Assembly: GCA_964513075.1 (NCBI GenBank) | Contig: CAZELR010000002.1 | Span: 1,205 to 65,204, forward strand | Direction: 5' to 3' | DNA from: an uncultured Anaerolineales bacterium | GTDB taxonomy: Bacteria; Chloroflexota; Anaerolineae; CG2-30-64-16 | Length of the DNA: 64,000 nt | Shown here: in pieces, positions 1,042-64,000 of the stretch | Layout: the number at the start of each line of letters is the position of its first letter | Numbering within the stretch: position 1 is the first letter of the stretch | Notes under the pieces: generated by a model | Seen by the model: only the letters and a program-made list of their open reading frames with translations | The model's database searches: none | Told to the model about the DNA's origin: nothing | Program-made: the position numbers and the translations under genes

Positions 1042-2826
1042 CTATCGGATGTGCCCAAGCGCATCCGATACTAGTGCTTCCGGTACTCCATCTACCATCT
1101 CGACCCGTCCGATATCGCGTATTACCACGAAGCGCAGGCTGCGGCCGCGGCGTTTCTTGTCCGTGCCCATCGCGGCCAGCGCTGCGTTCGGGTCGAAGGA
1201 GTAGCGGACCGGCAGGCCGTGGCGTTCGACCGCGCTGCGGATCTTTTCGGGCAGGTCAATCGCACACAGCCCCAGGCTCGCGCTGAGCTCGGCCGCGGCC
1301 ACCAGCCCCAGGCCCACCCCCTCGCCATGGCGCAGCGTGAACCCCGAGATGAGCTCCAGCGCGTGGCCGAAGGTGTGCCCCAGGTTCAGCCACGCCCGGT
1401 CGCCGGCCTCGAACGGGTCGCGTTCCACGATGTCAGCCTTGACCCGGACCGCGGCGGCGATCATGCTGACCATGTCGGGTGGCTTTGCGTGGTGCGTATT
1501 GTGGCGACCTGCGGGTCGTGATGCGTATTGCGTGTTGCGTGTTGCGTGTTGCGTCTCTTTTTCCGGACTCGGGGCTTCAGCCGGTTTCTCGGGGCAGCGG
1601 GAACAACCGGCTAAAGCCTCGATTCCGGTGTCCAGGCGGTCGAAGAGCTCCGGATCGCCGATGATGGCGGTCTTGATGATCTCGGCCATGCCGGAGCGCA
1701 ATTCGACGCCTGGCAGGGTGGCCAGCAGGTCGGGATCGATCAGCACCAACGCCGGCTGTTTGAACGCGCCGACCAGGTTCTTCCCCTCGGGCAGGTCCAC
1801 GCCCGTCTTGCCGCCCACACTGGAGTCCACCATCGCCAGCAGGCTGGTTGGGATCTGCACGAACGGCACGCCGCGCAGCCACGTGGCGGCCGTGAACCCT
1901 GCCATGTCACCGACCACGCCGCCGCCCAGCGCGATCACCGGCTCGTTGCGCGCCAACTTGGCGGCTGTCAGTTGGGCATACAGGCCGGCCATCGTGGCCA
2001 ACGTCTTGTGCTGCTCGCCGTCCGGAACCTCGCAGACCAGCGGCTCGAAGCCGGCCACGACAAGCGATGTGCGCAGCGTCTCCAGGTGATATTGTCCGAC
2101 CGTCGGGTTGGTGATCACCGCGCAGCGGCCCGGGGGCAGGCCGGCCTCGACGATGTGGCGTCCTGCTTGTCTTAGGACCCCGCCCGCGATGAGGACCGCG
2201 TAGCCAGACGAAGGACGAACGACGGACGACGAACGATGGATGACGGACGACGAATCGGCTCCTTCGTTCTTCGTCTTTCGTCTTTCGTCTCGTATGACGA
2301 GGCAGTGCCCGCCCTCGGGCAACCCCGCGACAATACCCAGCACCCGCTCGGCGGCCGCGGCGATGGTCAGGTTGCCGGTGTCCAGGTGATGCGGTATGGC
2401 GGCGTAGGCATCGGCGCGCTGCGCGAGGAGGGCCCGGATGCGCGCCAGGCGGTCGCCTCCGGCGAGCATGGGACGGCCGGCGTCATCTCCGACGCGGCGT
2501 AGGATCACCTCGGGCGCGGCGTCGAGGCAGATCACCGTGCCTCCAGCCGCCAGCGCCTCCCGGTTGGCCGGATCGATGGCCGCGCCCCCGCCCGTTGCCA
2601 CCACCAGCCCCTGCGGCGCGGCCAGCTCCCGGCAGACGGCGGCCTCCAGCGCCCGAAACGCATCTTCGCCGTCTTCGGCGAAGATGGCCGGGATCGGTTT
2701 GGCGGCGCGTTCTGCGATGACGTCATCGAGGCTCACAAACCGACGTCCCAGCCGCGCGGCCACGACAGGGCCGACGCTGGTCTTGCCGGTGCCCATGAAG
2801 CCGGTGAGGATGATATTTTGTGTCAT
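1042..2826 (-). CDS. aroB: Shikimate kinase fused to 3-dehydroquinate synthase (AroK-AroB, one continuous ORF)
   Basis: N-terminal GFMGTGKTSVG Walker A of shikimate kinase; downstream DHQ synthase motifs (GGGVVGDMAGF, SSVGGKTGVDL, LNLGHTFGHALE); real start MTQNIIL at 2826; the track ORF is extended through an upstream heptamer repeat; two repeat insertions are read in-frame. Confidence 0.8.
   Translation of the reverse strand: MTQNIILTGFMGTGKTSVGPVVAARLGRRFVSLDDVIAERAAKPIPAIFAEDGEDAFRALEAAVCRELAAPQGLVVATGGGAAIDPANREALAAGGTVICLDAAPEVILRRVGDDAGRPMLAGGDRLARIRALLAQRADAYAAIPHHLDTGNLTIAAAAERVLGIVAGLPEGGHCLVIRDERRKTKNEGADSSSVIHRSSSVVRPSSGYAVLIAGGVLRQAGRHIVEAGLPPGRCAVITNPTVGQYHLETLRTSLVVAGFEPLVCEVPDGEQHKTLATMAGLYAQLTAAKLARNEPVIALGGGVVGDMAGFTAATWLRGVPFVQIPTSLLAMVDSSVGGKTGVDLPEGKNLVGAFKQPALVLIDPDLLATLPGVELRSGMAEIIKTAIIGDPELFDRLDTGIEALAGCSRCPEKPAEAPSPEKETQHATRNTQYASRPAGRHNTHHAKPPDMVSMIAAAVRVKADIVERDPFEAGDRAWLNLGHTFGHALELISGFTLRHGEGVGLGLVAAAELSASLGLCAIDLPEKIRSAVERHGLPVRYSFDPNAALAAMGTDKKRRGRSLRFVVIRDIGRVEMVDGVPEALVSDALGHIR
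1487..1555. repeat. Degenerate heptamer tandem array (GTRYTGC units), family C
   Basis: gtgcgtattgtg...gtgatgcgtattgcgtgttgcgtgttgcgtgttgcgt; other arrays at 2843-2882, 6219-6275, 26107-26150 and 44551-44624. Confidence 0.7.
2205..2292. repeat. Imperfect hairpin repeat (GACGAAG units / CTTTCGT units), family A, copy 1
   Basis: Left arm of GACGAAC/GACGGAC units, right arm TTCGTCTTTCGTCTTTCGTC; second copy at 6755-6853. Confidence 0.7.
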
Positions 2827-2885
2827 GATCGAGGACTTTCTGATGTGCTGCGTGTTACGTGGTGCGTATTGCGTATTGCGTGAGA

Positions 2886-4103
2886 TCATGTGTCGTAGCC
2901 GAAGTGCCACGGCGCGTTGTCCATGGGGAGATCCTCTAATCGGCTTTGGCGGAGCGCGGCAAAGCGCGGCAATTGCTCGGCCAGCGAATCGCCGCCGAGC
3001 TTGCGCATCAGCTCATCCGCCAGGACCCAGGCGACCATCGCCTCGCCGATGACGACGGCGCGCGGGACCGCGCAGAAGTCGGAGCGCTCGTAGCGGGTGG
3101 CCGCGGCCTCACCCGTGGCCAGGTCCACGGACCGCAGCGGCGTGAGGGTGGTGGCGATGGGCTTCATGGCCGCGCGGAGCACGATCGGCTCGCCGGTGGT
3201 GATGCCGCCCTCCAACCCGCCGGCGCGGTTGGAAGCGCGCCCTATCTCCCCCGTTCTCCCCTCTCCTCCGGAGAGGATAGGGGCCGGGGCTGGGGACCCT
3301 ATCTCGTCATGCACCTGCGTGCCGCGCAGCCGCGCGTTGGCGAACGCGGGCCCGATCTCCGCGCCCTTGACGGCCTGAATCGACACAATCGCCGCGACCA
3401 GTTTCGCGTCCAGTCTGCGGTCGAAGTGCACGTGGCTGCCCAGTCCCGGCGGTGCGCCCAGCGCTACCACCTCGAACACCCCGCCCAGCGTATCCTTGGC
3501 CTGCATCGTATCGGAAATGGCGCGGTGCATAGCGTCTGCGGCGGCAGGGTCGGGGCAGCGCACGTCGTTAGTCTCGGCCAGCGTGAAGCGGTCCTCGTAA
3601 GGCAGATCGTCCGGAATCTTCGCGTCCACTTCGCCGATGCTGGTGATGTAGCCGCCCACGGTGATGCCGAACTGGGCCAGGTATGTCTTGCAGATCGCGC
3701 CGACCGCCACGCGCATGGCCGTCTCTCTGGCGCTGGCGCGCTCCAACCCCGGCCGCAGGTCGCGGTAGCCGTACTTGATCGCCGCGGCCAGGTCTGCGTG
3801 GCCCGGCCGCGGGATCGTCATGGGCGGGATGTCTTTTTCGGCCCATGCCCTGTAGTCCAGGTTGGCTACTTCCAGGCCGATGGGCCCGCCGGTGGTGCGG
3901 CCGGCAGTTACGCCCGCGGTGATGCGAACTGCGTCTCGCTCGATCTTCATGCGGCCACCTGCGCCATAAGCGATCTGCCGTCGCGCCAGCTCCCGGTCGA
4001 TGTCTTCGGCCGCGAGCGGCAGCCCGGCGATTATCCCTTCCAGGATCGCGGTCAGCTTTGGGCCGTGGCTTTCACCGGCGGTAAGGAAACGCAATATAGC
4101 CAT
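2886..4103 (-). CDS. aroC: Chorismate synthase
   Basis: MAILRFLTAGESHG N-terminus and RASNRAGGLEGGITTGEP signature; carries an extra in-frame insert (GSPAPAPILSGGEGRTGEIG) encoded by a palindromic repeat. Confidence 0.9.
   Translation of the reverse strand: MAILRFLTAGESHGPKLTAILEGIIAGLPLAAEDIDRELARRQIAYGAGGRMKIERDAVRITAGVTAGRTTGGPIGLEVANLDYRAWAEKDIPPMTIPRPGHADLAAAIKYGYRDLRPGLERASARETAMRVAVGAICKTYLAQFGITVGGYITSIGEVDAKIPDDLPYEDRFTLAETNDVRCPDPAAADAMHRAISDTMQAKDTLGGVFEVVALGAPPGLGSHVHFDRRLDAKLVAAIVSIQAVKGAEIGPAFANARLRGTQVHDEIGSPAPAPILSGGEGRTGEIGRASNRAGGLEGGITTGEPIVLRAAMKPIATTLTPLRSVDLATGEAAATRYERSDFCAVPRAVVIGEAMVAWVLADELMRKLGGDSLAEQLPRFAALRQSRLEDLPMDNAPWHFGYDT
3239..3307. repeat. CCCTATCTCC / GGAGAGGATAGGGG palindromic mini-element inside aroC
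   Basis: Three copies of the ccctatctc core in inverted arrangement; translated in-frame. Confidence 0.6.
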
Positions 4104-4104
4104 C

Positions 4105-5382
4105 CTACCCCAGCACCCGCACCAGGTGATACTGCTTCTTGCCCGTCCTCAAGACCACGTAGGCGCCTTCGATGACCTGCGCGATGGTGATAGCTCCCGA
4201 CGCGTCATCGACGCGCACGTTGTTGACGTAGGCGCCGCCCGAGGCGAGCAGCCGGCGCGCCTCGCCTTTGGACTTCACCGCGCCGGTCTCGACTAACAGG
4301 TCTACGAGCGGCTTGCCTTCTCCCTCGAACGCCGTCTTCGGCTGCTCGCTGGCCGGCACGTCGGCAAAGATGTCGGCGATGTCCGACGCAGCCAGGCCTT
4401 CGATGGCGCCGCCGAAGAGCACTTGCGATGCCTTTTCAGCGTCGGCTAAGGCTTGGTCGCCGTGCACCAGCCGCGTCACCTCGCGCGCCAAGGTTCGCTG
4501 CGCGTCCCGGCGTTCGGGATGTTCCCGCGTCGCGGCCTCTTGGGCGGCGATCTCATCCGCGGTCAGCCAGGTGAAGTAGCGCAGGAAGTTGACCGCATCG
4601 GTGTCAGGCTGGTTCAGCCAGAACTGGTAGAAGCGGTACGGCGAGGTGCGCTGGGGATCCAACCAGATGGCGCCCTGTACGGTCTTGCCCAGCTTAACCC
4701 CCTCGGCGCCGGTGACCAGGGGGTAAACCATGCCGTAAGCCCGGGCGCCTTTGACGCGGCGGATCAGCTCGACGCCCGCGGTGATGTTGCCCCACTGATC
4801 GCTGCCGCCGGCCTGCAGGGTGCAGCCGAAGCGCTCGTGCAACTGCAGGAAATCGTAGGCTTGCAGCAGCATGTAGCTGAACTCGGCGTACGAGATGCCG
4901 TCCTGCCGGTCGAGCCTTGATTTGACCGAGTCCTTGGCCATCATGTAGTTCACCGTGAAGTGCTTGCCCACGTCGCGCAGGAAGTGCATCATCGGGATGG
5001 TGGTCAGCCAGTCGGCGTTGTTCACGATGCGGGCAGGGTTAGTGCGGACTTCGAAATCGAGGAAGCGCGCCAACTGGCCGCGAATCGCCTCCACATTGAC
5101 TGCAATCGTCTCCAGGCTTTGCAATTGGCGCTCCTGGCTTTTGCCGCTAGGGTCGCCGATCATGCCAGTGCCGCCGCCCGCGAGTGCGATGGGGGTGTGT
5201 CCCGCGCGCTGCATGCGCGCCAGTCCCATCAGCGCCAGTAGATTCCCCACCTGGAGGCTGGTCGAGGTCGGGTCGAATCCGATGTAGGCGGTCACCTTTT
5301 CCTGGGCCAAGGTATCAGGCAAGCCTTCGGTGAAGTCATACACCAGGCCGCGCCAGTGGAACTCATCGAAAACGTTGGTCAT
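4105..5382 (-). CDS. tyrS: Tyrosyl-tRNA synthetase (class I, with C-terminal S4 domain)
   Basis: GFDPTSTSL...[22 protein letters not shown] core, KLGKT (KMSKS) motif and S4-like C-terminus; the HIGH motif reads QVGN; embedded in the aro operon with overlaps on both sides. Confidence 0.85.
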
Positions 5383-6283
5383 TTGCTTCTAGCTCCTTTC
5401 TCATCAGTCGGGCAAGACTGCCCGCATCGATTCCTGTCCACAATGCTGCCGCTTGCGCGCCCTGGTGCACCAGCATCCCCAGCCCATCGATGGCTGTGGC
5501 GCCTTGCGACCGGGCCAGCGCCAGCAGCGCGGTGGGCCGGTGATAGATCAGATCGTACACCACCTGGTCCGACCGGAACGCCGCATCCGGCTCCCACGGC
5601 AGCGCATCCCCTGCGTGTAACCCTAAACTGGTCGCGTTGACGATCAGGTCGGCCCAAGGCGCCAGCTTCGGCAAGGCGCCGGGAAACGCATGTGCGCTCA
5701 GCCGGTCAGTCGCATCGGGCAGGGCCGCGCACATTGCTCGACATAATCTATCAGCATGCTCCGGCGTCCGGTTGGCGACGGCCACCTCCGCACCGGCCTC
5801 CAGCAGCGCATAGGCCACCGAGCGTGCCGCGCCGCCAGCGCCGAGGACGATGGCTCGGCGACTTCGCACCCCATGCGCCTGTAAATCCGCCATGAATCCC
5901 GCGCCGTCGGTGTTGTCGCCCAACAGTGAGCCATCGGCCCGCACGATAAGGGTGTTCACAGCCCCCGCCGCCTGCGCCATCGGCGTCAGTTCGTCTAGGA
6001 AGGGCATGACCGCCTGCTTGTGCGGCACGGTAACATTGGCTCCTGCGAAGCCAAGCGCAGCCAGCCCGGCCACAGCCTCGCCCACGCGTTCCGGCGCCAC
6101 CGGCAGCGGCACATAGACCCAATCCAGTCCTAGCGCCGCATACGCCGCGTTGTGCATCGCCGGGCTCAGGCTGTGGTCCACCGGCCAGCCGAGCAGGCCG
6201 ACCAGGCGGGTTGCGCCCGTGATGCGTGATGCGTGATGCGTGGTGCGTGGTGCGTATTGCGTATTGCGTACTGCTTTAGTCAT
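5363..6283 (-). CDS. aroE: Shikimate dehydrogenase
   Basis: [12 protein letters not shown] and GDNTDGAGF motifs plus an NAD(P) Rossmann fold ([15 protein letters not shown]); the ATG at 6283 overlaps the aroA stop (ATGA); the first ~24 aa are encoded by a heptamer repeat array. Confidence 0.85.
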
Positions 6284-7710
6284 TCGTCCATCGCTGATTC
6301 GTCACTCGCCCACTCGATTTCCGCCCCCAGGGACCTCATCGTCTCCACGAAGCTCGGGAACGAGTCACCGATTGCTTCGGCCCCCCGGACGGTGGTCTGA
6401 CCGCCTGCAACCAGGCCGGCCACCGCGAGGGCCATGGCCAGGCGATGGTCATGGTGGCATTTTACCACAGCACCTCTCAGTTGGGTGGGTCCGGTCACAA
6501 TCATGCCGTCCGGTCGTTCCTCGATAGTCGCGCCCATCTTCCGTAGCTCTGTCGCGACCGAAGCAATGCGGTCCGACTCCTTAACTCGCAGCTCACCGGC
6601 CTCGCGCACGACTGTTACGCCCTCCGCCTGCGTCGCGGCTACGGCGAAGATCGGGAACTCGTCGATCGCACGCACGATCAGGTCGCCGGCGGCTTCTGTG
6701 GCGCGCAGGGCGGCGCCCTGAACGGTGATGTCGGCGATCGGTTCGCCTGTCGCGGATGAAGGACGAAGGACGGACGACGAAGGACGAAGGACGGATGACA
6801 AGGTGCTTTCCTGCGGGTCGGCGCTTTCGTCTTTCGTCTTTTGTCTTTCGTCAGTCACGCACATCTTTGCTCCCATCGCCGCCAGCAGATCATACAGCCC
6901 CGTGCGAGTGGGATTGACGCCGACGCCGGGCAGCCGGATCTCTGAGCCCGGCACGATCGCGGCCGCGACCAGTGGAAACGCGGCGGAGGAGAAATCGGCG
7001 GGGATAGTGATGCCGTCGAGAGGCGCGCGCAATGCTTGCCCGCCGCGCAAGCGAACGGTCAGCTCTTGGGACTCGACGGCCACACCGAAGTCGCGTAGCA
7101 TGCGTTCGGTGTGATCGCGCGATGGTCCCGGCTCGTGAAGGATCGTCTCACCTTCAGCGAACAAGCCCGCCAGCAGGATGGCCGACTTGACCTGAGCACT
7201 GGCGACCGGCAGGCGGTAATCGATGCCCCGCAGGTTGCCGCCCTGGATAGTGAGCGGCGGCAGCCGGCCGCCGTCGCGGCCCAGCACCGTCGCGCCCATC
7301 AGCCGCAGCGGCTCGGCGACCCGGCCCATGGGGCGGCGGCGCAGCGGCTCGGTTCCGGTCAGCACGCTGGTGAACGGCTGCCCTGCCAGGAGCCCGGCCA
7401 GCAGCCGGATGGTAGTGCCCGAGCCGGCGCAGTGCAAAACGTCCTCCGGTTCGGTCAAGCCGTGCAGGCCGCGGCCGCGGATGAGCAGATCGGAGCCGAA
7501 ACCTGTCTTCTGGTCGTCAATGCTCACTCCGAGGGCCTGCATACAGCGCAGCGTCGCCATGCACACCTCCGCCGGCACCCAGCCGCGGATGCGCGTCTCG
7601 CCGTCGGCCAACGCGGCCAGGATGATTGCCCGGTGGGTGATCGATTTGTCGCCCGGCACGGTGGCTTGTCCGCGTAACGGGCCGGAAGGGTGGATGATCA
7701 GGTCTCGCAT
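6280..7710 (-). CDS. aroA: 3-phosphoshikimate 1-carboxyvinyltransferase (EPSP synthase)
   Basis: MRDLIIHPSGPLRGQATVPGDKSITHRA matches the AroA N-terminus; start chosen at ATG 7710, although the track ORF extends to 7770 through a GTTGAAT repeat; contains an in-frame hairpin-repeat insertion. Confidence 0.85.
   Translation of the reverse strand: MRDLIIHPSGPLRGQATVPGDKSITHRAIILAALADGETRIRGWVPAEVCMATLRCMQALGVSIDDQKTGFGSDLLIRGRGLHGLTEPEDVLHCAGSGTTIRLLAGLLAGQPFTSVLTGTEPLRRRPMGRVAEPLRLMGATVLGRDGGRLPPLTIQGGNLRGIDYRLPVASAQVKSAILLAGLFAEGETILHEPGPSRDHTERMLRDFGVAVESQELTVRLRGGQALRAPLDGITIPADFSSAAFPLVAAAIVPGSEIRLPGVGVNPTRTGLYDLLAAMGAKMCVTDERQKTKDESADPQESTLSSVLRPSSSVLRPSSATGEPIADITVQGAALRATEAAGDLIVRAIDEFPIFAVAATQAEGVTVVREAGELRVKESDRIASVATELRKMGATIEERPDGMIVTGPTQLRGAVVKCHHDHRLAMALAVAGLVAGGQTTVRGAEAIGDSFPSFVETMRSLGAEIEWASDESAMDE
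6755..6853. repeat. Family A hairpin repeat, copy 2 (inside aroA)
   Basis: gaaggacgaaggacggacgacgaaggacgaagg ... ctttcgtctttcgtcttttgtctttcgtc. Confidence 0.7.
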
Positions 7711-7726
7711 GGTGAGTACCGTATGT

Positions 7727-8605
7727 TCAATGTTGAATGTTGAGTGTCGAACGTTGAATGCGGTGATCATGGGCGCGCGTCAGGGTTGTCCGCAGTGTGG
7801 GCTCGTCCTCTGCTGCCAGTGATTCACGCAAGCCTGCGAGCTGCGCCGCATAGGCGTCCAGCCAGTCCAGCACGGCCGAACGATTGGTCAGCAGGATGTC
7901 CAGCATCATGTCCACGTCGCTGGCGGCCAGGCGGGTGGTGTCGCGGTAGCCGGATGCTGCCAGCGACCGGGCTAACGGATCATCGGCGGTCGAGACGGTG
8001 TTGACCAGCGCGGCCGCGACCGCGTACGGCAGATGACTGATGGCTGCCACGGCCCGATCGTGCGCGGCCGGGTGCAGGATGACCGGCCGTGCACCGACCG
8101 CCTCTACTAACGCGCGGGCCTGGGCCAGCGCAGCGCCCGATGTCCGCGACAGGGGACAGAGAACAAAGGTCTTGTTGCGGTAGAGCCCCGCCTCAGCCGC
8201 CGCGAACCCGGCTAGCTCCTTGCCGCACATGGGATGTCCGCCCACAGGCTGCAATTCTGGGGGCAGGTTTGCTAGCGCCGCACAAATCTCGACTTTGGTG
8301 CTGCCCAGGTCGAGCACCAGCGCGCCGGGCCTGGCGGCGCGGCCCACCTCCGGCAGTTGGCGCAGGATCGTGCGGGCCGGCGTGGCGAGCACGATCACAT
8401 CAGCGTCTGCCGCGCCCTCAGCCAGGTCGGTCGTGCCAAAATCAATTGCGCCGGCCTCAAGCGCCGCGCCGAGCGTCTCTTGCCTGCGCGCGACGCCGAC
8501 GATGCGTTGAACGCCGTCCCCGGAACCTTCAGCCTCCCGCAGCGCCAGCGCCAGCGATCCCCCCATCAGTCCAAGCCCCACGATGCACACAGTCGGCAAG
8601 TTCAT
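7727..8605 (-). CDS. tyrA: Prephenate/arogenate dehydrogenase
   Basis: N-terminal Rossmann fold IVGLGLMGGSLALAL; TyrA-family length and layout; lies in the aro operon between the DAHP synthase and aroA. Confidence 0.8.
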   Translation of the reverse strand: MNLPTVCIVGLGLMGGSLALALREAEGSGDGVQRIVGVARRQETLGAALEAGAIDFGTTDLAEGAADADVIVLATPARTILRQLPEVGRAARPGALVLDLGSTKVEICAALANLPPELQPVGGHPMCGKELAGFAAAEAGLYRNKTFVLCPLSRTSGAALAQARALVEAVGARPVILHPAAHDRAVAAISHLPYAVAAALVNTVSTADDPLARSLAASGYRDTTRLAASDVDMMLDILLTNRSAVLDWLDAYAAQLAGLRESLAAEDEPTLRTTLTRAHDHRIQRSTLNIQH

Positions 8606-8702
8606 TATTTCCGCCTCACAAGGTTTCCCCCTGGCTCGGTCAGAGACCGGCCAGAGCGAACTGCTCCCCTGCTCCCTTTCTCCCCTGCTCCCCCGCTCCC
8701 CC

Positions 8703-9716
8703 TCACAACGTCCTTCCCACCGCCGGCGCCAGCATGCGCAGCTCGCGCACCAGCTCGGCGAAGCGTTCCGGCTTCAGCGATTGAGCGCCGTCTGAGAGCG
8801 CCTGCGCCGGATGCGGGTGCACCTCGATGATCAAACCGTCGGCACCGGCCGCAATGCAGGCCTTGGACGTGGGTGGGATCAGTTCCCATTTGCCTGTGGC
8901 GTGACTCGGATCCGCAAAGACCGGCAGGTGCGTCCACTGCTTGAACAGCGCGATGGCGTTGATGTCCAGCGTGTTGCGCGTGGCGGTCTCGAAGGTGCGG
9001 ACGCCGCGTTCGCACAGCATGACGTTGCGGTTGCCTCCGCTGAGGATGTACTCTGCCGACATCAACGTCTCCTGGATGGTGCCCATCATGCTGCGCTTCA
9101 GGAACGCCGGCGTGCGTGTCTTGCCGATAGCTGCCAACAGCGGAAAGTTCTGCGCGTTGCGGGCGCCGATCTGAAAGATATCGGTGTATTTCCCGACCAG
9201 CGGCACGGCCTCAGGAGACATCACCTCGGTGATGATGGGCAACCCGGTGGCTTCGCGCGCTTCGGCCAGGATCTCCAGGCCCTCTTCACCCAGCCCTTGA
9301 AACGCGTAGGGCGATGAACGGGGCTTGAACGCACCGCCGCGCAAGATGTCGGCGCCGGCCTCCTTCACCGCATACGCGGTCTCCAGAAGTTGGCTTTTGC
9401 TTTCCACCGAACAGGGCCCCGCCATGATGACCAATCGAGGGCCGCCGATCGTGACCCCGCGCACGTCGAAGACGGTGTCATCCGGGTGAAAGTCGCGGCT
9501 TGCCAGCTTGAACGGCTGCAGGATGCGTACAACCTGCTCGACGCCGGCGAGCATCTCGAAGTTGTGTGATTGGATGGGCCGGTCGTCGCCGACCACGCCG
9601 ATGATCGTGCGCTCGGTGCCCTGGGACAGATGCGCGTGGTAGCCAAATGCCTCTACCTGTGTTACTACGGCATCGATGTCGCTCGCCGTAGCGCCGTGTC
9701 TCATAACGATAATCAT
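8703..9716 (-). CDS. 3-deoxy-7-phosphoheptulonate (DAHP) synthase, type I-beta with N-terminal ferredoxin/ACT-like regulatory domain
   Basis: Collinear with the Thermotoga-type DAH7PS: [10 protein letters not shown]...GPCSVES...[13 protein letters not shown]...IGARNAQNF...DPSHATG. Confidence 0.9.
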
Positions 9717-9728
9717 ACGGAACCTCCC

Positions 9729-10973
9729 CTACTCCGCCGCCGGATAGCTTCCCAGCAACTTCAGAAACGCTGTGCGGGTCAACAGGCCCAGCAGTGCCCG
9801 ATTAACGGTGGCATCCTGCCAGTGGCCTTCCATATCGACATAAAATACATAGTGCCACGGCCGGTTGCGCCGCGGCCGGCTTTCGATCTTAGTCAGATTG
9901 ATCCCCCGGTTGGCGAATTCGCCCATGACGTTGTACAACGCGCCAGGCGTGTGCATGGTGGCGAATACGATGGAGGTCTTGTTGTGTTTAGCAGGCGGCG
10001 GCTCCTCACGTCCCAGCAGGAAGAAGCGGGTCGTGTTGTCGGGTGAGTCTTCGATGCCTGCGTCCAGGATCGTCAGCCCATAAGTCTGACCGGCCAGCGC
10101 GCTGGCGATGGCAGCCGTGCCGGGCGCCGGGTTCCGGGCCAGCTCAGCCGCGGCGCCGGCCGTGTCATAGGCCGGCACCGCCTCCCAGCCGCGCAGGCGC
10201 AGATAGCGGCTGCACTGCGCCAGCGCCTGGGGGTGTGAGTGGACGCGGCGGATATCTGTCTGCTGGGTGCCCTCGGGCGCCAGCAGGCAGTGGCGCACCC
10301 GCAGCTTCACCTCGCCCACCACGCGCAGGTCGTGATCCAGCAGCAGATCGTAAGCTTGGTTGATGGAGCCTGCCTGTGAGTTTTCAACTGGGAGCAGCCC
10401 CAGGGCCGCCCGGCCCTCCTCCACTGCAGTGAAGATGTCGCCAAAGCCGGGACAGGCCAGGGTTGCGGTCTGTGCGCCCAGGTGTTGAAAGATCGCTTCT
10501 TGCGAGTAAGCGCCCGGCTCGCCCTGGAAGGCGACCACCTGGCGACCCTGACCGAGTGCTGAGCCGTTCTTGTGCGATTCCGGGGGTTCTGCCGGTGGGG
10601 GTGCAGCGAACTCGCCTTGCAGGTCCGGCCGCAGCACAACGGCGTCACGCAGGTAGATGTGACGGACATCGTAGATTGGGCGCTCGGTATTCCAGTGCAG
10701 CAGGATCCGGATGGTGCGGGGCAGTCCGCCGGGCGTCGCGATCTCCACGGCGTCGAGCAACGGCACGTGGTGCCAGCCCAGCTCGCGTGCAGCCCGTGCC
10801 GGGAACGCGGCGTCCAGATCCGGCGTCATTGTGAAGGTGGCGCTGGCCAGGTCTTCCACCTGGATACTGTTTGCCGCGACCAGCGCGGTCAGTAGTTCCC
10901 GGGTGACGTCCAGGATGGCTTGGGACGTGTTTTCGGTTGCAGTTGTGGCGCCGCGGACACCTCTAACGGGCAT
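9729..10973 (-). CDS. pheA: Chorismate mutase (AroH class) fused to prephenate dehydratase and ACT domain
   Basis: N-terminus [11 protein letters not shown]...MTPDL...[14 protein letters not shown] resembles B. subtilis AroH; followed by a PDT domain ([14 protein letters not shown]) and a C-terminal ACT; true start is ATG 10973 with GAAGGAGG upstream; the track start at 11021 lies inside a terminator hairpin. Confidence 0.85.
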
Positions 10974-10990: not shown

Positions 10991-11025
10991 ATAAAAAGAG
11001 CGTGGGGGCTGGTGCCTCCACGCTC
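10991..11025 (-). terminator. Intrinsic terminator (attenuator) immediately upstream of the pheA RBS
   Basis: Minus strand reads gagcgtgg-aggcaccagccc-ccacgctc followed by TTTTTAT, directly before the pheA RBS. Confidence 0.5.
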
Positions 11026-11053
11026 GGCTTGACTGATCAGGCTGGACTGCGCT

Positions 11054-11170
11054 TCATTGCTTCAGCGGCGCCAAGGTTCCAGCCGGCGCGGGGGCTAGCC
11101 GGGGCGGGCTGGAATAATAAAAGAAGAAGCTGGCGCTAACTGAAACAATGCGCATAGGTGCATTTCTCAT
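11054..11170 (-). CDS. Putative Phe/Tyr-rich leader peptide (MRNAPMRIVSVSASFFFYYSSPPRLAPAPAGTLAPLKQ)
   Basis: 38-codon ORF between the predicted promoter and the terminator in the pheA leader; contains a consecutive FFFYY run. Confidence 0.4.
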   Translation of the reverse strand: MRNAPMRIVSVSASFFFYYSSPPRLAPAPAGTLAPLKQ

Positions 11171-11200
11171 TGCGTTACTGGATTTTTCAAGAACGACGGG

Positions 11201-11229
11201 ATCATAGCACGGCAACTAAAAACTGTCAA
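11201..11229 (-). promoter_or_regulatory. Sigma70-like promoter of the pheA leader (TTGACA-17-TATGAT)
   Basis: Minus strand reads TTGACA gtttttagttgccgtgc TATGAT, about 25 nt upstream of the leader-peptide ATG. Confidence 0.5.
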
Positions 11230-11265: not shown

Positions 11266-12144
11266 TCAGTTAGCAGCCTCGATCTCGTGCAGGATGGTCT
11301 CCAGGTCGTCCCGGTTGAACTCGTAGCGCGCATAACAGAAGTGGCAGTCCACGGTGGCCTCGCCCTCGATCAGCAGCGCCAGGATGTCATCGTAGTCCAG
11401 CATCTTCAGCGCCTGGCGCGAGCGTTCCCGACTGCACGAACAGCGGAACGCCAGCGGCTCGGATTCCAATACCTCATACTCGATCCCAGTGAAGGACCTC
11501 GCCAGGATATCTTCCGGAGTCAGACCGCCGGTCAGCAGCGTCTCCAGGGATGGCAGCCCTTCTATGTTGGCTGCCAGGCGTGCGAACTCTGCGGGGCTGT
11601 GGCCGGGCATGGCCTGGATAAGCAAGCCGCCGGCCGCGGCTATGCTCCCGCCGTCCATTTGAACGCCGATCTGAGCGAGCGAGGGTACCTGCTCGGAGGT
11701 GTTGAAGTAGTGCGTCAGCTCTTTATCCAGCTCGCCGTTCTCCAGCTCCACCACGCTGCTGTAGAGGCTCTTGATGCGCAGGTCCTTCACCACGGTCAAC
11801 TGGCCCGTGCTGCCGATTGCTGCGGCCACCGCCGCGCGGTCTATGGTTTGTGGCGCCGCGATATCGGGGACAGCCACATAACCCCGCACGCGGCCGTACG
11901 CGTCGGCCTCGATCACCACCTTGCCCAGCGGGCCGTTTCCCTCGACCTTCAGGGCGACGCGCTCCTGAACCTTCAGAAGCCCGCCCAACAGCGCGCCGGC
12001 GGTCAGGCCATAGCCCAGCGCGGCTGCCGCGACCGGGTAAGCCGCGTGGCGCTGGGCCGCTTCCTGGGCCAGGCCGGTGGTGATGCAGGCGAGCCCGCGC
12101 ACGCCCGCCTGTTTGGCAATGGCTCGTACCATCGTATCGCTCAT
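11266..12144 (-). CDS. hslO: Hsp33 redox-regulated chaperone
   Basis: Hsp33 fold with C-terminal zinc centre CSCSRE...CHFC. Confidence 0.9.
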   Translation of the reverse strand: MSDTMVRAIAKQAGVRGLACITTGLAQEAAQRHAAYPVAAAALGYGLTAGALLGGLLKVQERVALKVEGNGPLGKVVIEADAYGRVRGYVAVPDIAAPQTIDRAAVAAAIGSTGQLTVVKDLRIKSLYSSVVELENGELDKELTHYFNTSEQVPSLAQIGVQMDGGSIAAAGGLLIQAMPGHSPAEFARLAANIEGLPSLETLLTGGLTPEDILARSFTGIEYEVLESEPLAFRCSCSRERSRQALKMLDYDDILALLIEGEATVDCHFCYARYEFNRDDLETILHEIEAAN

Positions 12145-32366: not shown

Positions 32367-32798
32367 GGAGCGAGGCGCCCGGGGTGTCTTGCCTCTTCTC
32401 TGAGGTTTGCGCCCTGAAAAAAGTTGTGCTAGGATAACCCAGCAGAACCCTGCCGTGCTCGTGATGTTCCAACAGCGTTTTGAGCCAACATGAATACAAA
32501 GGGAGCTGGACATCCCGGCCGGAGATGCAATAGCTGCGCACGCCGCTTCGTGTGACGTGCGTCTTAGCAAAGCAGAACTGACCGGCAAGGCACCCACCTG
32601 CGAAAGCAGGTTCAAAACAGTCGAGCACACGGCACAGCGGGGGACTCAGAATATAAACGGCCATTTGGGAATGCCCAGATGGCCGTTTTGAGTTTTGTAA
32701 AACCCTTGACATAGCCTCTCGGATTGTGCTATTCTTGATCCAACAGCCGTCCGTGCTGGTGCCGACCGGCCGATTCCTAGTCTTAATCGAGGAACCCT

Positions 32799-44550: not shown

Positions 44551-44624
44551 CACTACGCACCGCGCACCACGCAATACGCAGTACGCAATACGCAGTACGC
44601 AATACGCAGTACGCAATACGCTAC
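44551..44624. repeat. Heptamer/14-mer tandem array (ACGCAATACGCAGT x3-4), family C
   Basis: Intergenic between the DUF4037-like gene and mmdB. Confidence 0.7.
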
Positions 44625-48316: not shown

Positions 48317-48402
48317 GGAGAGGTCGCATAGTTGGCCTAGTGCGCGCGTCTCGAAAACGCGTATCCCGGAAGGGATCGTGGGTTCGAATCCCACCCTCTC
48401 CG
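48317..48402 (+). tRNA. tRNA-Ser (anticodon CGA)
   Basis: Cloverleaf with GGAGAGG/CCTCTCC acceptor stem, anticodon loop CTCGAAA, long variable arm, GTGGGTTCGAATCCCAC T-arm. Confidence 0.85.
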
Positions 48403-48604: not shown

Positions 48605-48694
48605 GGAGAGGTCGCATAGCTTGGCCTAGTGCGCACGACTGGAAATCGTGTATCCCGAAAGGGATCGAGGGTTCAAATCCCTCCCTCTCCGCCA
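48605..48694 (+). tRNA. tRNA-Ser (anticodon GGA), CCA encoded
   Basis: Same acceptor stem, anticodon loop CTGGAAA, long variable arm, GAGGGTTCAAATCCCTC T-arm, 3' GCCA; TTATAAT about 12 nt upstream. Confidence 0.85.
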
Positions 48695-50647: not shown

Positions 50648-50928
50648 GTGCGGTCGTGCTAAACGGGGAGCTAGCGGTGCCTTGTAACCCGCAATCCGCT
50701 ATAGCGGGGTCGAAGTCCCTTCTTGAGGGCCTGCGGTCAGCGGGACTGCTTGGCAGGTAAGCGTGGATGGTTGGGTCCTGTGCGGCGGGGGCCTGTGAAA
50801 CTGGTCAGGACCGGAAGGTAGCAGCCATAAGCGGTCACCCTCGGGTGCCACGGGGTTGCCTGGCCTGAGCAAGCCTGTCCGGCAAGCCAAGTGACGAGGA
50901 TCGAAAAAGGGTGCACGACCAGCACTCA
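50648..50928 (+). ncRNA. ffs: Signal recognition particle RNA, long (Bacillus-type, about 280 nt)
   Basis: Conserved domain IV sequence GGTCAGGACCGGAAGGTAGCAGCC; 5' tgcggtcgtgc pairs with 3' gcacgaccagca (closing helix); TTGACA-17 promoter just upstream. Confidence 0.7.
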
Positions 50929-58464: not shown

Positions 58465-61317
58465 TTACTCTACAAACACAATCACTTCCGCGCTCCGCAC
58501 CTCCTGCCCATCCGCCAGGCGCGCGATAGCCTGGAAGGTGTGTTGGCCCTTGACTAACGTCCACCAGGCGGTGTGCTCCGGACCCGGCGCAGGGGCCAGG
58601 GGTGCGCCGTCGGCCCAGAGAACGATCGTGCCATCCAGGCCCGGCGCCGCCAACGCAGTGATCGGGATCGCCTGCGCGCTGAGCGGCAGCCCCGGGTTGA
58701 TGCGATAGGTGCGGTTGGGATCAGGGCTGGTCAGTCGAAGGTTAAAGGTTGAAGGTTGAAGGTCGGATGCTCGGTTTTGGATTTTGGATGGCACAGTTTC
58801 CAGTCCGCCATCCGCCATCTGCCATCTGCCGTCTGCCAGTTGCGGGATGTTGTTGGCTCGGGCCCAAGCCTGGTATGTGGGCGGAAGCTGCCAGATCGTC
58901 TGCGGTGCGACGTGTTGGGGTGGGGTCGTCTCGTCAGCGGGCTGGCCGGTGCGGGTGTCGATCAGTACGCGCAGGTGCGAGCGGTCGACCTCGGTGGGTT
59001 CCGTCCCCGCGATGAACCATTCCAGGCGGCGTTGGGGGCAGGGGATGGTGGATGGTTGACGTCGGGGGTTGGATGTTGGATCTTGTAGGCTGCCGCTGCC
59101 CTGCACCCCTGCACCCTTGCTCCCCTGCTCCCCTGCTTGCATCGGCAGCAGCCCCGAGTCCGCGCACACCTCCACCTGCACCAGGCCGTCGGGGATCTCG
59201 AAATCGCTGGCGGGGATATCGCGCAGCACTGCGAGCATGAAGTCGCGCCAGATGGGGCCGGCGCCGCTGATGCCGCTGACATCCTTCATGGGTGTGTTGT
59301 CCGCGTTGCCCACCCAGACGCCGGCGACCACTGCCGGTGTGTAGCCCACGGTCCAGTTATCGCGCCAGTCGGTGGAGGTGCCGGTCTTGGCCGCGGCCGG
59401 CCGGCCCAGCTCTAGCACGTTGCCCCGCCCGAACGCCGGCAGCCGCGCGTTGTTGTCGCTGAGGATGTCGGTAATCAGGTAGGCGACGCGGGGATCCAGG
59501 GCCATGGTTGAAGGTTGAAGGTTGAAGGTTGAAAGATCTGAACCTTTAACCTTCAACCTTTCAACGTGTGACCCGCTCTCGTAGATCGTCTCGCCATCCA
59601 AACTCTCCACCCGCTCAATAGCGTAGGGCCTGACGCGCTGGCCGCCGTTGGCGAATGCGGCGTAGGCCGCGGTCAAATCGAGCAGCCGCACCTCGCCGCC
59701 GCCGAGGGTCAACGATAGACCGTAATGGGTTGAAGGTTCAAGGTTCAAGGTTGAAGGTTGACTCGCGGATGTGGACTGCGAAGCATCAGCCTGTGCCCCC
59801 TTGCCCACTGCCCCCTGATCACTGTCCCCTGACCCCTGACGACTGACCACTGACCGCCGTCCACTGCCCTCTGCTTCCCACGGAATCCCCAGCCGCGCGG
59901 CCTGCTCGACCAGTGCGTCGATGCCGATGTGGTCCAGGGTGATCACGGCGGGAATATTGTAGGAATTGGCCAGCGCGGCGCGCACCGAGACGGGGCCGTG
60001 GTAGATCCGGTCGTAATTGTTGGGGACATACGGCTCGCCTTCAGCGGTCAGAAAGGCGGTTCGCAAGTCGGCGATCACTGTGGCCGCGGTCCAGGGCGCC
60101 TGGCCAACTGCCCGGCTGCGTTCGGGGTCCAGCGCGGCCGCGTAGGTGAGCGGTTTGATGGCGGAGCCGGGCTGGCGGAGGCTGAGGCTGGCATTGACCG
60201 CGCCGCTGATCGCCGGGGCGAAATAATCCGGGCTGCCCACCATGGCCAGCACCGCGCCGGTAGCGGGATCGACCGCCACTAATGCGGCGTTCTCGGCGCG
60301 GCGCGCGGGATCGGCGGCCGCGTCACACGTCACGCCGGGGACCGCGTTGGGAAGCGACGCGCAGGGGCGGAGCTGTGCCAGCCGGCGCTGTACGGCATCT
60401 TCGGCCGCCTGCTGCCAGTCGAGGTCAAGAGTGGTGGTTACCCGCAGGCCGCCGAGGCTCAGTTGCTCTGCAGATAGCAGCGATTCAAGTTGGCCCTGCG
60501 CCCACATCACGAAGTGCGGGGCGGCGATCGGAAAGGGGGTGCCGGCATAGGCCAGGCGTTCCCTTTTTGCGTCCTGAGCTTGGCCTGGAGTAAGGTACCC
60601 TTGCTCGATCATCAGCCTCAGCACCGTGGCCTGCCGCTCCTGCGCGATCTCCGAGTTTTCGATGGGATTGTAGCCGGCCGGGTATTGCGGCAGCCCGGCC
60701 AGCAGCGCGCACTGGGCCAGGTCCAGCTCAGACGCATGCATGCCGAAATAGGCCTGGGCCGCGGCCTCGATCCCCACGGCAAAGTGGCCGTAGTAAGTGT
60801 CGTTCAGGTACAGCGCAAGGATCTCGTCTTTGGAGTACCGCGTCTCCAGCCGCAGCGCCAGCCATGCCTCGCGCAGCTTGCGCCGCAGCGTCTGTTCGTT
60901 TCGCTCTTCGGCAGATAGGTACAACGTGCGCGCAACCTGCTGGGTAAGCGTGCTGGCTCCCGACATGGCGCCGCCGCGCCAATTTTGCCAGGCAGCGCGG
61001 CCGATCGCGATGAGGTCCACGCCCGGATGCTCGTAGAAGCGGCTGTCTTCGGTGGCGACCGTAGCCTGCTGGCAGGCCAGGGGAATCTGATTTAGCGCCA
61101 GCGGTATGTGCTTGCTGCCAGCCGGGTCGATCACTTCGTAGAGCAAGCGATCGTGGCGGTCGGTGATCAGGATGCTGGACCTGGCCGCGGGCGCGTCAAT
61201 GTTGCCCGTTGCCCGGCCCGGGTCGGGCAGGTCGGCCAGCAGGACAAAGTAGCCCAGGAGCGCGCCAGCCAGCAACGCTCCCAGGGGGGCCAGGTGCCAC
61301 CAGCGAACGCGATGCAT
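58465..61317 (-). CDS. pbpC: Penicillin-binding protein 1C-like bifunctional transglycosylase/transpeptidase
   Basis: GT51 motifs (ATEDSRFYEHPGVD, GASTLTQQ, RKLREAWLALRLE); transpeptidase SxxK region (GSAIKP); C-terminal PbpC-like domain; several repeat-encoded in-frame inserts. Confidence 0.85.
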   Translation of the reverse strand: MHRVRWWHLAPLGALLAGALLGYFVLLADLPDPGRATGNIDAPAARSSILITDRHDRLLYEVIDPAGSKHIPLALNQIPLACQQATVATEDSRFYEHPGVDLIAIGRAAWQNWRGGAMSGASTLTQQVARTLYLSAEERNEQTLRRKLREAWLALRLETRYSKDEILALYLNDTYYGHFAVGIEAAAQAYFGMHASELDLAQCALLAGLPQYPAGYNPIENSEIAQERQATVLRLMIEQGYLTPGQAQDAKRERLAYAGTPFPIAAPHFVMWAQGQLESLLSAEQLSLGGLRVTTTLDLDWQQAAEDAVQRRLAQLRPCASLPNAVPGVTCDAAADPARRAENAALVAVDPATGAVLAMVGSPDYFAPAISGAVNASLSLRQPGSAIKPLTYAAALDPERSRAVGQAPWTAATVIADLRTAFLTAEGEPYVPNNYDRIYHGPVSVRAALANSYNIPAVITLDHIGIDALVEQAARLGIPWEAEGSGRRSVVSRQGSGDSDQGAVGKGAQADASQSTSASQPSTLNLEPSTHYGLSLTLGGGEVRLLDLTAAYAAFANGGQRVRPYAIERVESLDGETIYESGSHVERLKVKGSDLSTFNLQPSTMALDPRVAYLITDILSDNNARLPAFGRGNVLELGRPAAAKTGTSTDWRDNWTVGYTPAVVAGVWVGNADNTPMKDVSGISGAGPIWRDFMLAVLRDIPASDFEIPDGLVQVEVCADSGLLPMQAGEQGSKGAGVQGSGSLQDPTSNPRRQPSTIPCPQRRLEWFIAGTEPTEVDRSHLRVLIDTRTGQPADETTPPQHVAPQTIWQLPPTYQAWARANNIPQLADGRWQMADGGLETVPSKIQNRASDLQPSTFNLRLTSPDPNRTYRINPGLPLSAQAIPITALAAPGLDGTIVLWADGAPLAPAPGPEHTAWWTLVKGQHTFQAIARLADGQEVRSAEVIVFVE
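58735..58848. repeat. GGTTGAA heptamer array plus ggattttggatgg and ccgccatctgcc mini-arrays, family B, inside pbpC
   Basis: Related copies at 59506-59566 (perfect hairpin), 59727-59762 and 62748-62862, and near 7723-7760 and 39721-39740. Confidence 0.7.
59506..59566. repeat. Family B perfect hairpin (ggttgaagg x4 / ccttcaacc) inside pbpC
   Basis: ggttgaaggttgaaggttgaaggttgaaagatctgaacctttaaccttcaacctttcaac. Confidence 0.75.
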
Positions 61318-62541: not shown

Positions 62542-64000
62542 TCAGTGGACAAGCTTACCGGATTCCGGCTCGGCCGCAACCAAATCGGCGCCACTGGCGT
62601 CTGTCCAAAGCCGGCGCATCCCCTCCGACGTTGCCAGCAGTTCATCCAGCGTGCCTTCGGCTTCCACGCGGCCATCCAGCAGCACGATGATGCGATCGGC
62701 CCGGCGCAGCACCGCGCGGCGGTGGGAGACGGCAAGAACGGTCGCGGGGGTTGAAGGTTGGAAAGTTGAAGGCGCAAGGTCGTCATCACCCCCCGAGCCT
62801 TCATTTCCGTCTTTAAACCCTGAACCTTCGACCTTAAACTTTGAACCTTGAACCTTCAACCCCACGCGCTCCCACAGGATCTCCTCCGTCTGCACGTCCA
62901 GCGCGCTGGAGAGGTCATCGAAGACCAACAGCTCAGGCGCGCGCGCGAACATGCGCGCCGCGGCTGCGCGCTGCACCTGGCCGCCGCTCAGCCGCACCCC
63001 GCGCGGTCCGACGAGGGTGTCCAGGCCATGCTCCAACGTGGCGATGTCGGGTTCCAGCACCGCGCGCCAGATGGCATACTGTATCTCACCCTCTATCCCC
63101 ATCAGTACATTCTCTCGCAGCGTCGCGCTGAACAGGCGCGGCACCTGGGCGGTGTAGGCGGCGCACGGCCGGCCCCGCGGCGGCGAAGCCAACAGCGCGG
63201 CCGGATCGACCACAGGCTCGCCGTCCCACACGATCTCGCCCGCGTCGCGGGCCAGCAGGCCCAGCACGGCGCGCAGCAGCGTCGTCTTGCCCGAGCCGAT
63301 CTGCCCGGTGATGACCACGAAGCTGCCGCGGGGCACGCTGAAGGTGACGTCCCGCACGCCGCGATCGGCACCTGGATGGAAACAGGTGAGGTGGCGCACT
63401 TCCAGGAGGGGCGGCAGAGGCCCAGTTCCGGGAGAAGACGGCGTCACCCTGAGCGAGTCTGCGGCGCAAGGTTGGCTGCGGCTCAAGCTCAGCGAAGGGT
63501 CTTGTTGGCCGGGTTGAGATCCTTCGCTGGGGTCTCGGCGTGACTGCTTTTGGGCCGACAACCCGCTCAGGGTGACTTTCTGGTGGGTCATGGGGTGATG
63601 TTCCACCAGTACCTCCGGCGGCTCATCCGGGATCAGTTCGACCAGGCGGCTGATGGCCACCTCCTGCTGCTTGATGTCGCCGACGAAGCTGCCCAGGTAC
63701 GACGGTAGGTCGGTGGTGAACCACAGGTAGTAGGTGAACAGCGCAAAGTCACCCACGGTGAACGCACCCTGTGTCATCGCCTGCCCCGCCAGCAGCAGCA
63801 TCACCCCAACACCGACCACGACTGCGATGCTGTTCATAGAGAAGGCGAGCTCTTCCAGCACCGCGGCCCGGATCGTGGCCCGGCTGCGCGTCTCGGCCAG
63901 CCGGCTGAAATGGGCGACGGTGTGCGTCTCGGCGCCGGCCACTTTCACCGCCTGGACCGCGCCGAACAGCTCGGCTAGGAAGCCGATCACCGCGTCCCCG
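62542..64000 (-). CDS. ABC exporter, fused permease/ATPase; N-terminus outside the window
   Basis: Walker [10 protein letters not shown], signature LSGGQVQR, Walker B LLVFDD; ORF remains open at the window edge; carries a repeat-encoded in-frame insert before the H-loop. Confidence 0.8.
62748..62862. repeat. Family B hairpin with large loop inside the ABC transporter gene
   Basis: ggttgaaggttggaaagttgaagg ... ccttcgaccttaaactttgaaccttgaaccttcaacc. Confidence 0.7.

Follow-up and report, generated by a model that had tools for sequence, protein, structure and literature searches.

The window, by which we mean the entire stretch of 64,000 nucleotides analysed here, harbours on its minus strand an eight-gene aromatic operon (1042 to 10973), whose genes, assigned by Pfam, are co-directional with short or overlapping junctions. 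The first gene, an aroH-pheA fusion at 9729-10973 (pheA in the following), combines an AroH-type chorismate mutase domain (CM_1) with prephenate dehydratase (PDT) and ACT domains, and its CM-PDT product comprises 414 amino acids, with which relatives align from residue 1. On the same strand follow the genes for DAHP synthase (8703-9716), prephenate dehydrogenase (tyrA, 7727-8605), EPSP synthase (aroA, 6280-7770), shikimate dehydrogenase (aroE, 5363-6283), tyrosyl-tRNA synthetase (tyrS, 4105-5382) and chorismate synthase (aroC, 2886-4103), and finally an aroK-aroB fusion for shikimate kinase and dehydroquinate synthase (1042-2910). The operon spans most steps of the common pathway, the phenylalanine branch, the tyrosine branch and tyrosyl-tRNA synthetase (TyrRS); neither a dehydroquinate dehydratase gene nor trp genes were identified among its eight genes by Pfam. 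From the gene arrangement we infer that the eight genes form one transcription unit. The upstream neighbour of the operon's leader promoter is the Hsp33 gene (hslO), likewise on the minus strand, which ends at 11266.

Many short tandem heptanucleotide arrays, with units such as CGTGTTG, GACGAAC, TTCGTCT and ACGCAAT, are found in the window (1504-1568, 2193-2290, 2831-2881, 6218-6283, 6754-6852, 7723-7760, 44569-44621, 58737-59873 and 62813-62862). Some are located at gene junctions and others in frame within genes of the aromatic operon, where they form an insertion of about 35 amino acids in EPSP synthase, the AroK-AroB linker and a segment inside AroB, encoding peptide stretches such as SSVLRPSSSVLRPSS. 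Similar heptamers, repeated in short tandem arrays, are known from filamentous cyanobacteria. At the gathering threshold, Rfam furthermore identified a 6S RNA (32444-32647), a large bacterial SRP RNA (50654-50918) and two long-arm tRNAs (48317-48402 and 48605-48691).

Upstream of pheA, the minus strand carries a leader with promoter, open reading frame (ORF), aromatic codon run, hairpin with U-tract, and Shine-Dalgarno (SD) sequence plus ATG, all in canonical order. The sigma-70-type promoter (11229-11201), which the original prediction had described as TTGACA-17-TATGAT ahead of the pheA ribosome binding site, is indeed present: TTGACA at 11229-11224 is separated by a 17-nt spacer from an extended -10 element, TGcTATGAT, with the hexamer at 11206-11201. 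It scores 11/12 against the consensus and has the TG extension, a match that is not significant by itself (1 found vs 0.7 expected). Yet a TTGACA with a 17-18-nt spacer and a TAnnnT hexamer is kept in 22/22 leaders, that is in the window and in 21 relatives. Between the end of the -10 element (11201) and the pheA ATG (10973) there is room for a transcribed leader of about 150-250 nt.

The leader ORF had been called as 38 codons at 11170-11054. This frame exists as described, running from ATG 11170 to TGA 11056-11054 and encoding MRNAPMRIVSVSASFFFYYSSPPRLAPAPAGTLAPLKQ, but the start that is conserved among relatives is the second in-frame ATG at 11155, which yields 33 codons (MRIVSVSASFFFYYSSPPRLAPAPAGTLAPLKQ). 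In the window, this ORF has a weak SD, the GAGA that stands about 11-13 nt before ATG 11155. Codons 10-14 of the conserved frame, TTC TTC TTT TAT TAT at 11128-11114, encode the predicted Phe-Phe-Phe-Tyr-Tyr run, which is the sole run of at least four consecutive Phe/Tyr codons in any frame on both strands of the 64-kb window. By chance, about 0.003 such runs would be expected per strand of the window, and the Phe/Tyr codon feature of the leader is therefore in excess of chance.

The stop codon of the leader ORF lies 28 nt upstream of a strong intrinsic terminator (11025-10989), whose stem GAGCGUGG/CCACGCUC and inner GGC/GCC stem are followed by the U-tract UUUUUAUUU at 10997-10989. Its GC-rich hairpin of 28 nt, GAGCGUGGAGGCACCAGCCCCCACGCUC (11025-10998), has a predicted energy of -20.2 kcal/mol, as strong as the original prediction had supposed, and is present in every full-length fold of the window leader. 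A simple terminator scan did not pick up this hairpin, probably because that scan considered only loops of 3-8 nt and the stem contains an internal mismatch. The 211-nt leader as a whole folds with z = -5.6 relative to dinucleotide shuffles. The terminator had been thought to end about 20 nt before the SD of pheA, whereas the U-tract actually ends about 5 nt upstream of this SD (AAGGAGGA, 10984-10977), leaving about 16-18 nt to the pheA ATG (10973-10971). From the leader ORF stop to this ATG the distance is about 80 nt, with the terminator between the two.

No other leader ORF with a run of Trp, His, Cys, Thr, Met or Leu/Ile/Val codons ahead of a terminator was found when the window was scanned. 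A candidate 'WW' leader at 42368-42344 was rejected as an ordinary gene-end terminator, a hairpin with a T-run, which in turn suggests that intrinsic terminators are in use in the same genome.

A scan of one genome per species with the CM-PDT protein as query revealed 27 close relatives with 58-82% identity, all of them from uncultured Anaerolineae/Chloroflexota assemblies, and the same layout stands upstream of pheA in the 21 complete ones. In every one of these 21 relatives, an ORF of 29-36 codons contains 5-9 Phe plus Tyr codons, always of both kinds; the aromatic cluster falls at about codons 8-19, and the stop codon precedes the terminator by 21-37 nt. The leader ORF and its aromatic codons are thus conserved, also in further variants from metagenomes. 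An SD-like GAGG or GAGA stands upstream of the leader ORF in most relatives, and the aromatic run varies between them by synonymous and Phe-to-Tyr substitutions while the frame is kept. Phe and Tyr together make up 19.8% of the leader codons, compared to 4.5% in nine window genes (the operon and hslO). The leaders favour the rarer codons TTT and TAT (66% each), in contrast to these nine genes, which favour TTC (80%) and TAC (68%). Codon counts of the family leaders gave no enrichment of Trp. The regulatory codons fit the logic of the operon, whose genes make Phe and Tyr and charge tRNA-Tyr; its content of PDT, TyrA and TyrS, with which the codons had been matched beforehand, is confirmed by Pfam. 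The terminator is conserved as well: its helix is 89.6% paired overall, the stem GAGCGUGG/CCACGCUC is essentially invariant among relatives, and the eight outer pairs show no change except for one G-U in one sequence.

More divergent family members before AroH genes (L097, L116, L150, L155, L189, L190 and L017-like forms) were added by a metagenome scan with the terminator pattern. It gave 142 matches, most of which were rejected as unrelated terminators; 15 had a Phe/Tyr ORF, and 3 of these were false. A covariance model, R1, constructed on 12 leaders, detects a single copy in the window (10991-11100) and a further 36 in related genome and metagenome loci, including L022, L023 and L024, the last of which was read directly and not via the model. 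The arrangement of promoter, Phe/Tyr ORF and terminator recurs in about 37 related Anaerolineae/Chloroflexota loci. No match to the model came from ten aroH loci that do not belong to these close relatives: five carry a Chloroflexota or Dehalococcoidia label, and five are from other phyla.

The surroundings of the leader vary within the family. A gene for a PLP-dependent enzyme (motif TRAVHAGER) stands between leader and pheA in L022 (leader at 1659-1739) and L024 (leader at about 1520-1710), and a methyltransferase-like ORF and a stand-alone AroH lie downstream of the leader in L082. The leader of L023 (2112-2182) is located about 25 nt upstream of a matched PDT region, the match starting only at query residue 146, so the fused mutase domain may be absent there. 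L001, the closest relative, has a cobalamin riboswitch (2273-2506, minus) immediately before the leader promoter and on the other strand; the genes on that side of the leader are therefore not a conserved neighbourhood, whereas the link between leader and pheA is conserved.

The leader RNA can adopt alternative pairings, which we describe as regions 1 to 4, with the terminator as the 3:4 hairpin. Region 1 (11114-11099, UUCCAGCC.GC..GGC), the 5' arm of an anti-antiterminator hairpin, shares its first base with the end of the aromatic run and lies inside the footprint of a ribosome stalled there. Region 2 (11101-11077) comprises the 3' arm of this 1:2 hairpin (11091-11077) and the 5' strand of an antiterminator (CGGCUAGCCCCCGCGCCGGCUG, 11101-11080). 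Region 3 (11030-11006, AAGCCGAGCGUGGAGGCACCAGCCC), the 3' strand of the antiterminator, consists of the terminator 5' arm, its loop and 5 nt upstream. In the window, the predicted antiterminator duplex of 11101-11080 with 11030-11006 has an energy of -33.5 kcal/mol (z = -3.2). Such a duplex is predicted in 22/22 leaders, with energies of -18 to -34 kcal/mol and a median z of -2.4 relative to shuffles; these z-scores are modest and in several leaders fail to reach significance, since GC-rich strands readily pair. Another strand of the window, GCUGGAACCUUGGCGC (11088-11073), which lies upstream of the terminator and overlaps the first, can pair with the terminator 5' arm and loop (11023-11008) at 13/16 positions, so that two antiterminator registers may be available in the window. 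Members of the L017-type clade have region 1 immediately 5' of the aromatic codons (UUCGACCUCCGCG with CGCGGGGUCGAA), still within the footprint of a stalled ribosome.

Free RNA of the window leader is predicted to form a long hairpin with the inner part UUCCAGCC.GC / GC.GGCUGGAA (11114-11077). The outer extension of this 1:2 hairpin (within 11154-11048), in which 11154-11139 pairs with 11066-11048 and 11136-11130 with 11074-11068, encloses the aromatic codons; it is specific to the clade and only 43% paired over the whole family. The terminator is contained in the full-length minimum free energy (MFE) structures of 22/22 leaders, and in full-length folding of the window leader a ribosome mask at any codon never broke it. 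We set these masked full-length structures aside as uninformative for a kinetic switch and replaced them by folds of transcripts cut just before the terminator 3' arm, with or without a ribosome footprint. With the ribosome on codon 12 or 14 in the window, the long hairpin is blocked in these folds and CGGCUAGCCCCCGCGCCGGCUG pairs with AAGCCGAGCGUGGAGGCACCAGCCC. Across the family, the terminator core pairs upstream in 19/22 leaders when the ribosome is placed on the middle aromatic codon, compared to 8/22 without ribosome. Forcing the antiterminator on the window leader raises the energy from -72.1 to -50.6 kcal/mol without a mask and from -52.5 to -44.8 kcal/mol with a stalled ribosome. Thermodynamics favours the terminator state in every case, and any switch between the structures must therefore be kinetic, a principle on which classical attenuators rely as well. 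With the ribosome at the stop codon, MFE folds still contain the antiterminator in 14/22 leaders, so that discrimination under replete conditions would rely on fast local folding of the 1:2 hairpin or on steric exclusion by the ribosome, both of which are assumptions.

The two strands of the antiterminator have changed in step. Clades differ in the loop-adjacent segment of the terminator arm, and matching changes occur in the upstream strand, giving the complementary variants GCC/GGC, GAUGC/GCAUC, UCAAUGC/GCAUUGA, GCUGC/GCAGC, GAAUC/GAUUC, CAUCGC/GCGAUG and GUCGC/GCGAC. Native strand pairs are stabler than swaps between clades (-20.8 vs -17.7 kcal/mol, permutation p = 1.5e-4). A plain MAFFT alignment, made with no fit to structure, gives 78% pairing of the antiterminator compared to 23-49% in slid controls, and 6/16 of its pairs have changed on both sides; in the MAFFT alignment of 22 leaders, the inner 1:2 helix is 73.6% paired compared to 32-47%. 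The alignment of 38 sequences fitted to the model leans towards structure and contains two spurious reverse-strand rows; it gives 80% pairing of the antiterminator (28-50% in slid controls) and 61 compensatory cells where 28.9 are expected. The observed covariation was reached by 0/500 shuffles for the antiterminator in either alignment and by 3/500 for the 1:2 helix, statistics that overstate independence because the leader sequences share ancestry, and that should not be read as probabilities. RNAalifold on 19 sub-sequences found just 5 consensus pairs in another register, and MAFFT misaligns clades in which GCGCC motifs recur and bulges of 1-4 nt are present. A gapless anchor method for strand pairing selected wrong or alternative partners in several leaders and was kept only for L097, L150 and L155. 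An alternative antiterminator, which the original prediction had proposed to seek by folding, is thus predicted in all 22 leaders, forms in the folds of cut transcripts when a ribosome occupies the aromatic codons, and is accompanied by compensatory changes.

The leader combines a promoter and transcribed leader, a short ORF with cognate tandem codons, a terminator, a mutually exclusive antiterminator and a 1:2 hairpin within the stall footprint. Together with their conservation, and with alternative pairings whose strands covary, these sequence elements argue that the leader is very probably a ribosome-mediated (leader-peptide) transcription attenuator that senses charged tRNA-Phe and tRNA-Tyr. 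For its operation we infer that the ORF is translated, that ribosomes stall on it and that the choice between the structures is made kinetically. Transcription would begin at the conserved promoter, and a ribosome would translate the leader ORF of about 33 codons. When Phe and Tyr are plentiful, the ribosome would pass the five aromatic codons and reach the stop; the RNA behind it would fold into the local 1:2 hairpin (11114-11077, longer in the clade of the window) and thereby occupy the antiterminator strand, formation of the 3:4 terminator (11025-10989) would follow, and most transcripts would stop before pheA. When Phe or Tyr is scarce, the ribosome would stall on the Phe/Tyr codons and cover region 1, leaving region 2 (11101-11080) free to pair with region 3 (11030-11006) once this has been transcribed. 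The terminator would then be blocked, and RNA polymerase could enter the operon for CM-PDT, DAHP synthase, TyrA, the common shikimate enzymes and TyrRS.

Alternative structures alone do not tell what chooses between them, and the switch could be real but set by a trans-acting factor, such as an uncharged tRNA (T-box-like), an RNA-binding protein (TRAP- or PyrR-like) or a metabolite, with the ORF being incidental. T-boxes are indeed the reported RNA control of amino-acid genes in Chloroflexi (PMC2494555). We consider this explanation improbable, since an incidental ORF would not hold its frame, a length of 29-36 codons, a start with SD or a leaderless start, and a Phe/Tyr run in every complete leader, nor would the aromatic run be placed exactly so that a stalled ribosome covers region 1. 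Rfam 15, moreover, places no family at threshold in the window leader. Even at E <= 10 it yields only two chance-level hits (Guanidine-II and sucA-II) and neither a T-box (RF00230) nor an amino-acid leader family, including the gammaproteobacterial Phe leader; in 20 related loci it likewise finds no T-box or leader family, the one match being the cobalamin riboswitch on the other strand of L001. The leader is hence not recognised as a T-box, the alternative that had been named at the outset.

It is slightly less probable still that the leader senses no amino acid, and that hairpin and U-tract act as a constitutive partial terminator, a pause site or an mRNA-stability element, while the ORF aids ribosome loading or expression by reinitiation. 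Leader genes without regulatory role have been proposed to boost downstream translation (PMC4833913), and the retention of the terminator in all full-length MFE folds would agree with a constitutive element. A leader stop about 80 nt before the pheA ATG, with a terminator between them, is however ill-suited to reinitiation, and such a function leaves unexplained the fourfold Phe/Tyr enrichment, the preference for rare codons, the match to the function of the operon, and the covariation of the second strand with the terminator 5' arm and loop. The ORF might also code for a small protein with a function of its own, for instance a membrane peptide rich in aromatic residues, which the RNA structures merely overlap. 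Although the C-terminal half is conserved within clades (SPPRLAPAPAG and similar), its conserved codons fall on regions 1 and 2 of the switch; between clades, the peptide is wholly different while the pairing is retained, and with an unconserved N-terminus only the aromatic run is shared family-wide, which makes this the least probable of the explanations and a very unlikely one. Attenuation by a translating ribosome, as originally predicted, is the reading that we retain: conservation, antiterminator and T-box were each examined, and none of them refutes it.

The attenuators of E. coli pheA (leader PheL) and pheST (PheM) follow the same logic, with a promoter, a short ORF with tandem Phe codons, and 1:2, 2:3 and 3:4 hairpins. 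Beyond the pheL leader, the anatomy of these attenuators is textbook knowledge. One leader ORF can also carry codons for several end-products and thereby exert multivalent control, as in E. coli ilvGMEDA (Leu/Val/Ile) and thr (Thr/Ile); the multivalent logic of the Anaerolineae leader is alike, but there is no homology, and the amino-acid pair is here Phe plus Tyr. The literature that we searched contained no earlier description of a leader mixing Phe and Tyr codons. The pheL leader of E. coli pheA has been described (PMC3082878), and the intrinsic terminator has the same place there, just before the chorismate mutase-prephenate dehydratase gene. The two leaders nevertheless share no sequence or structure homology, and no Rfam leader family matches that of the Anaerolineae. 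The Anaerolineae ORF is about twice as long as pheL (33 vs 15 codons), its regulatory run mixes Phe and Tyr, and the mutase domain encoded by the first gene is of the AroH type (CM_1) instead of AroQ. The E. coli leader controls pheA alone, whereas the Anaerolineae leader would control eight genes, including the common pathway, tyrA and tyrS, in a lineage of the Chloroflexota and not of the Gammaproteobacteria.

Descriptions of leader-peptide attenuators exist for Proteobacteria and Actinobacteria, and predictions for some Firmicutes (PMC2965389, PMC1262725, PMC9413887). The actinobacterial trp, ilvB and leu leaders and the his leaders of Firmicutes are lineage-specific and were predicted by the same comparative criteria as the Anaerolineae leader (PMC1262725, PMC2965389, PMC9413887); no leader attenuator of Phe/Tyr genes has been reported in Actinobacteria. 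In Dehalococcoides, T-boxes precede ileS, trpE and a trpB-like gene (PMC2494555), and other phyla are known to have aromatic supraoperons under attenuator control (PMC1173090). The T-box leaders that precede aromatic and tyrS genes in Firmicutes, and the T-boxes of Dehalococcoides, resemble the Anaerolineae leader in position and output, a choice between terminator and antiterminator in response to tRNA charging (PMC2494555, PMC1173090). They differ in that a specifier codon and the T-box sequence sense uncharged tRNA directly, whereas the Anaerolineae leader has no such motif and is proposed to use a translating ribosome. Our literature search for leader peptides in Chloroflexi or Anaerolineae gave nothing relevant, in line with the original view that attenuation of this type would be notable in this lineage. 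Judged from the leader sequences, the locus most likely represents classical attenuation with dual sensing of Phe and Tyr, in an uncatalogued family that is unrelated to the E. coli leaders and belongs to a phylum for which we found no report.

A more far-reaching proposal, which we regard as tentative and somewhat short of probable, is that these leaders constitute an independently evolved, Chloroflexota-specific family of ribosome-sensing attenuators, in which Phe and Tyr gate the whole shikimate/Phe/Tyr pathway together with TyrRS, and the leaders of L017, L020, L021 and L022 are translated from leaderless transcripts. In these four loci the leader ATG follows the -10 hexamer (TAGACT, TAAATT, TAAACT or TAATGT) by about 6 nt (L017:170-185, L020:66-80, L021:230-245 and L022:1545-1585), and translation of leaderless transcripts is therefore predicted for this sub-clade. 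If true, the sensing ribosome would load at the extreme 5' end of the nascent RNA, which would imply tight coupling of RNA polymerase and ribosome in Chloroflexota. We know of no study of transcription-translation coupling in this phylum.

Anaerolineae are largely uncultured bacteria that are abundant in digesters, sludge and sediments, and to our knowledge their gene regulation is almost unknown. The leader described here reveals no new mechanism, but it extends classical leader-peptide attenuation to the Anaerolineae (Chloroflexota), provides an example of a mixed Phe/Tyr leader, and yields a covariance model that is ready for annotation of a short ORF that is readily mis-called or missed and lies outside all Rfam families. 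It also offers a compact, natural switch that would respond to Phe and Tyr. One survey has suggested that leader-peptide attenuator motifs originated in Gammaproteobacteria (PMC3766115). The Anaerolineae family may add one more case for a repeated origin of such attenuators, as opposed to their spread from Gammaproteobacteria.
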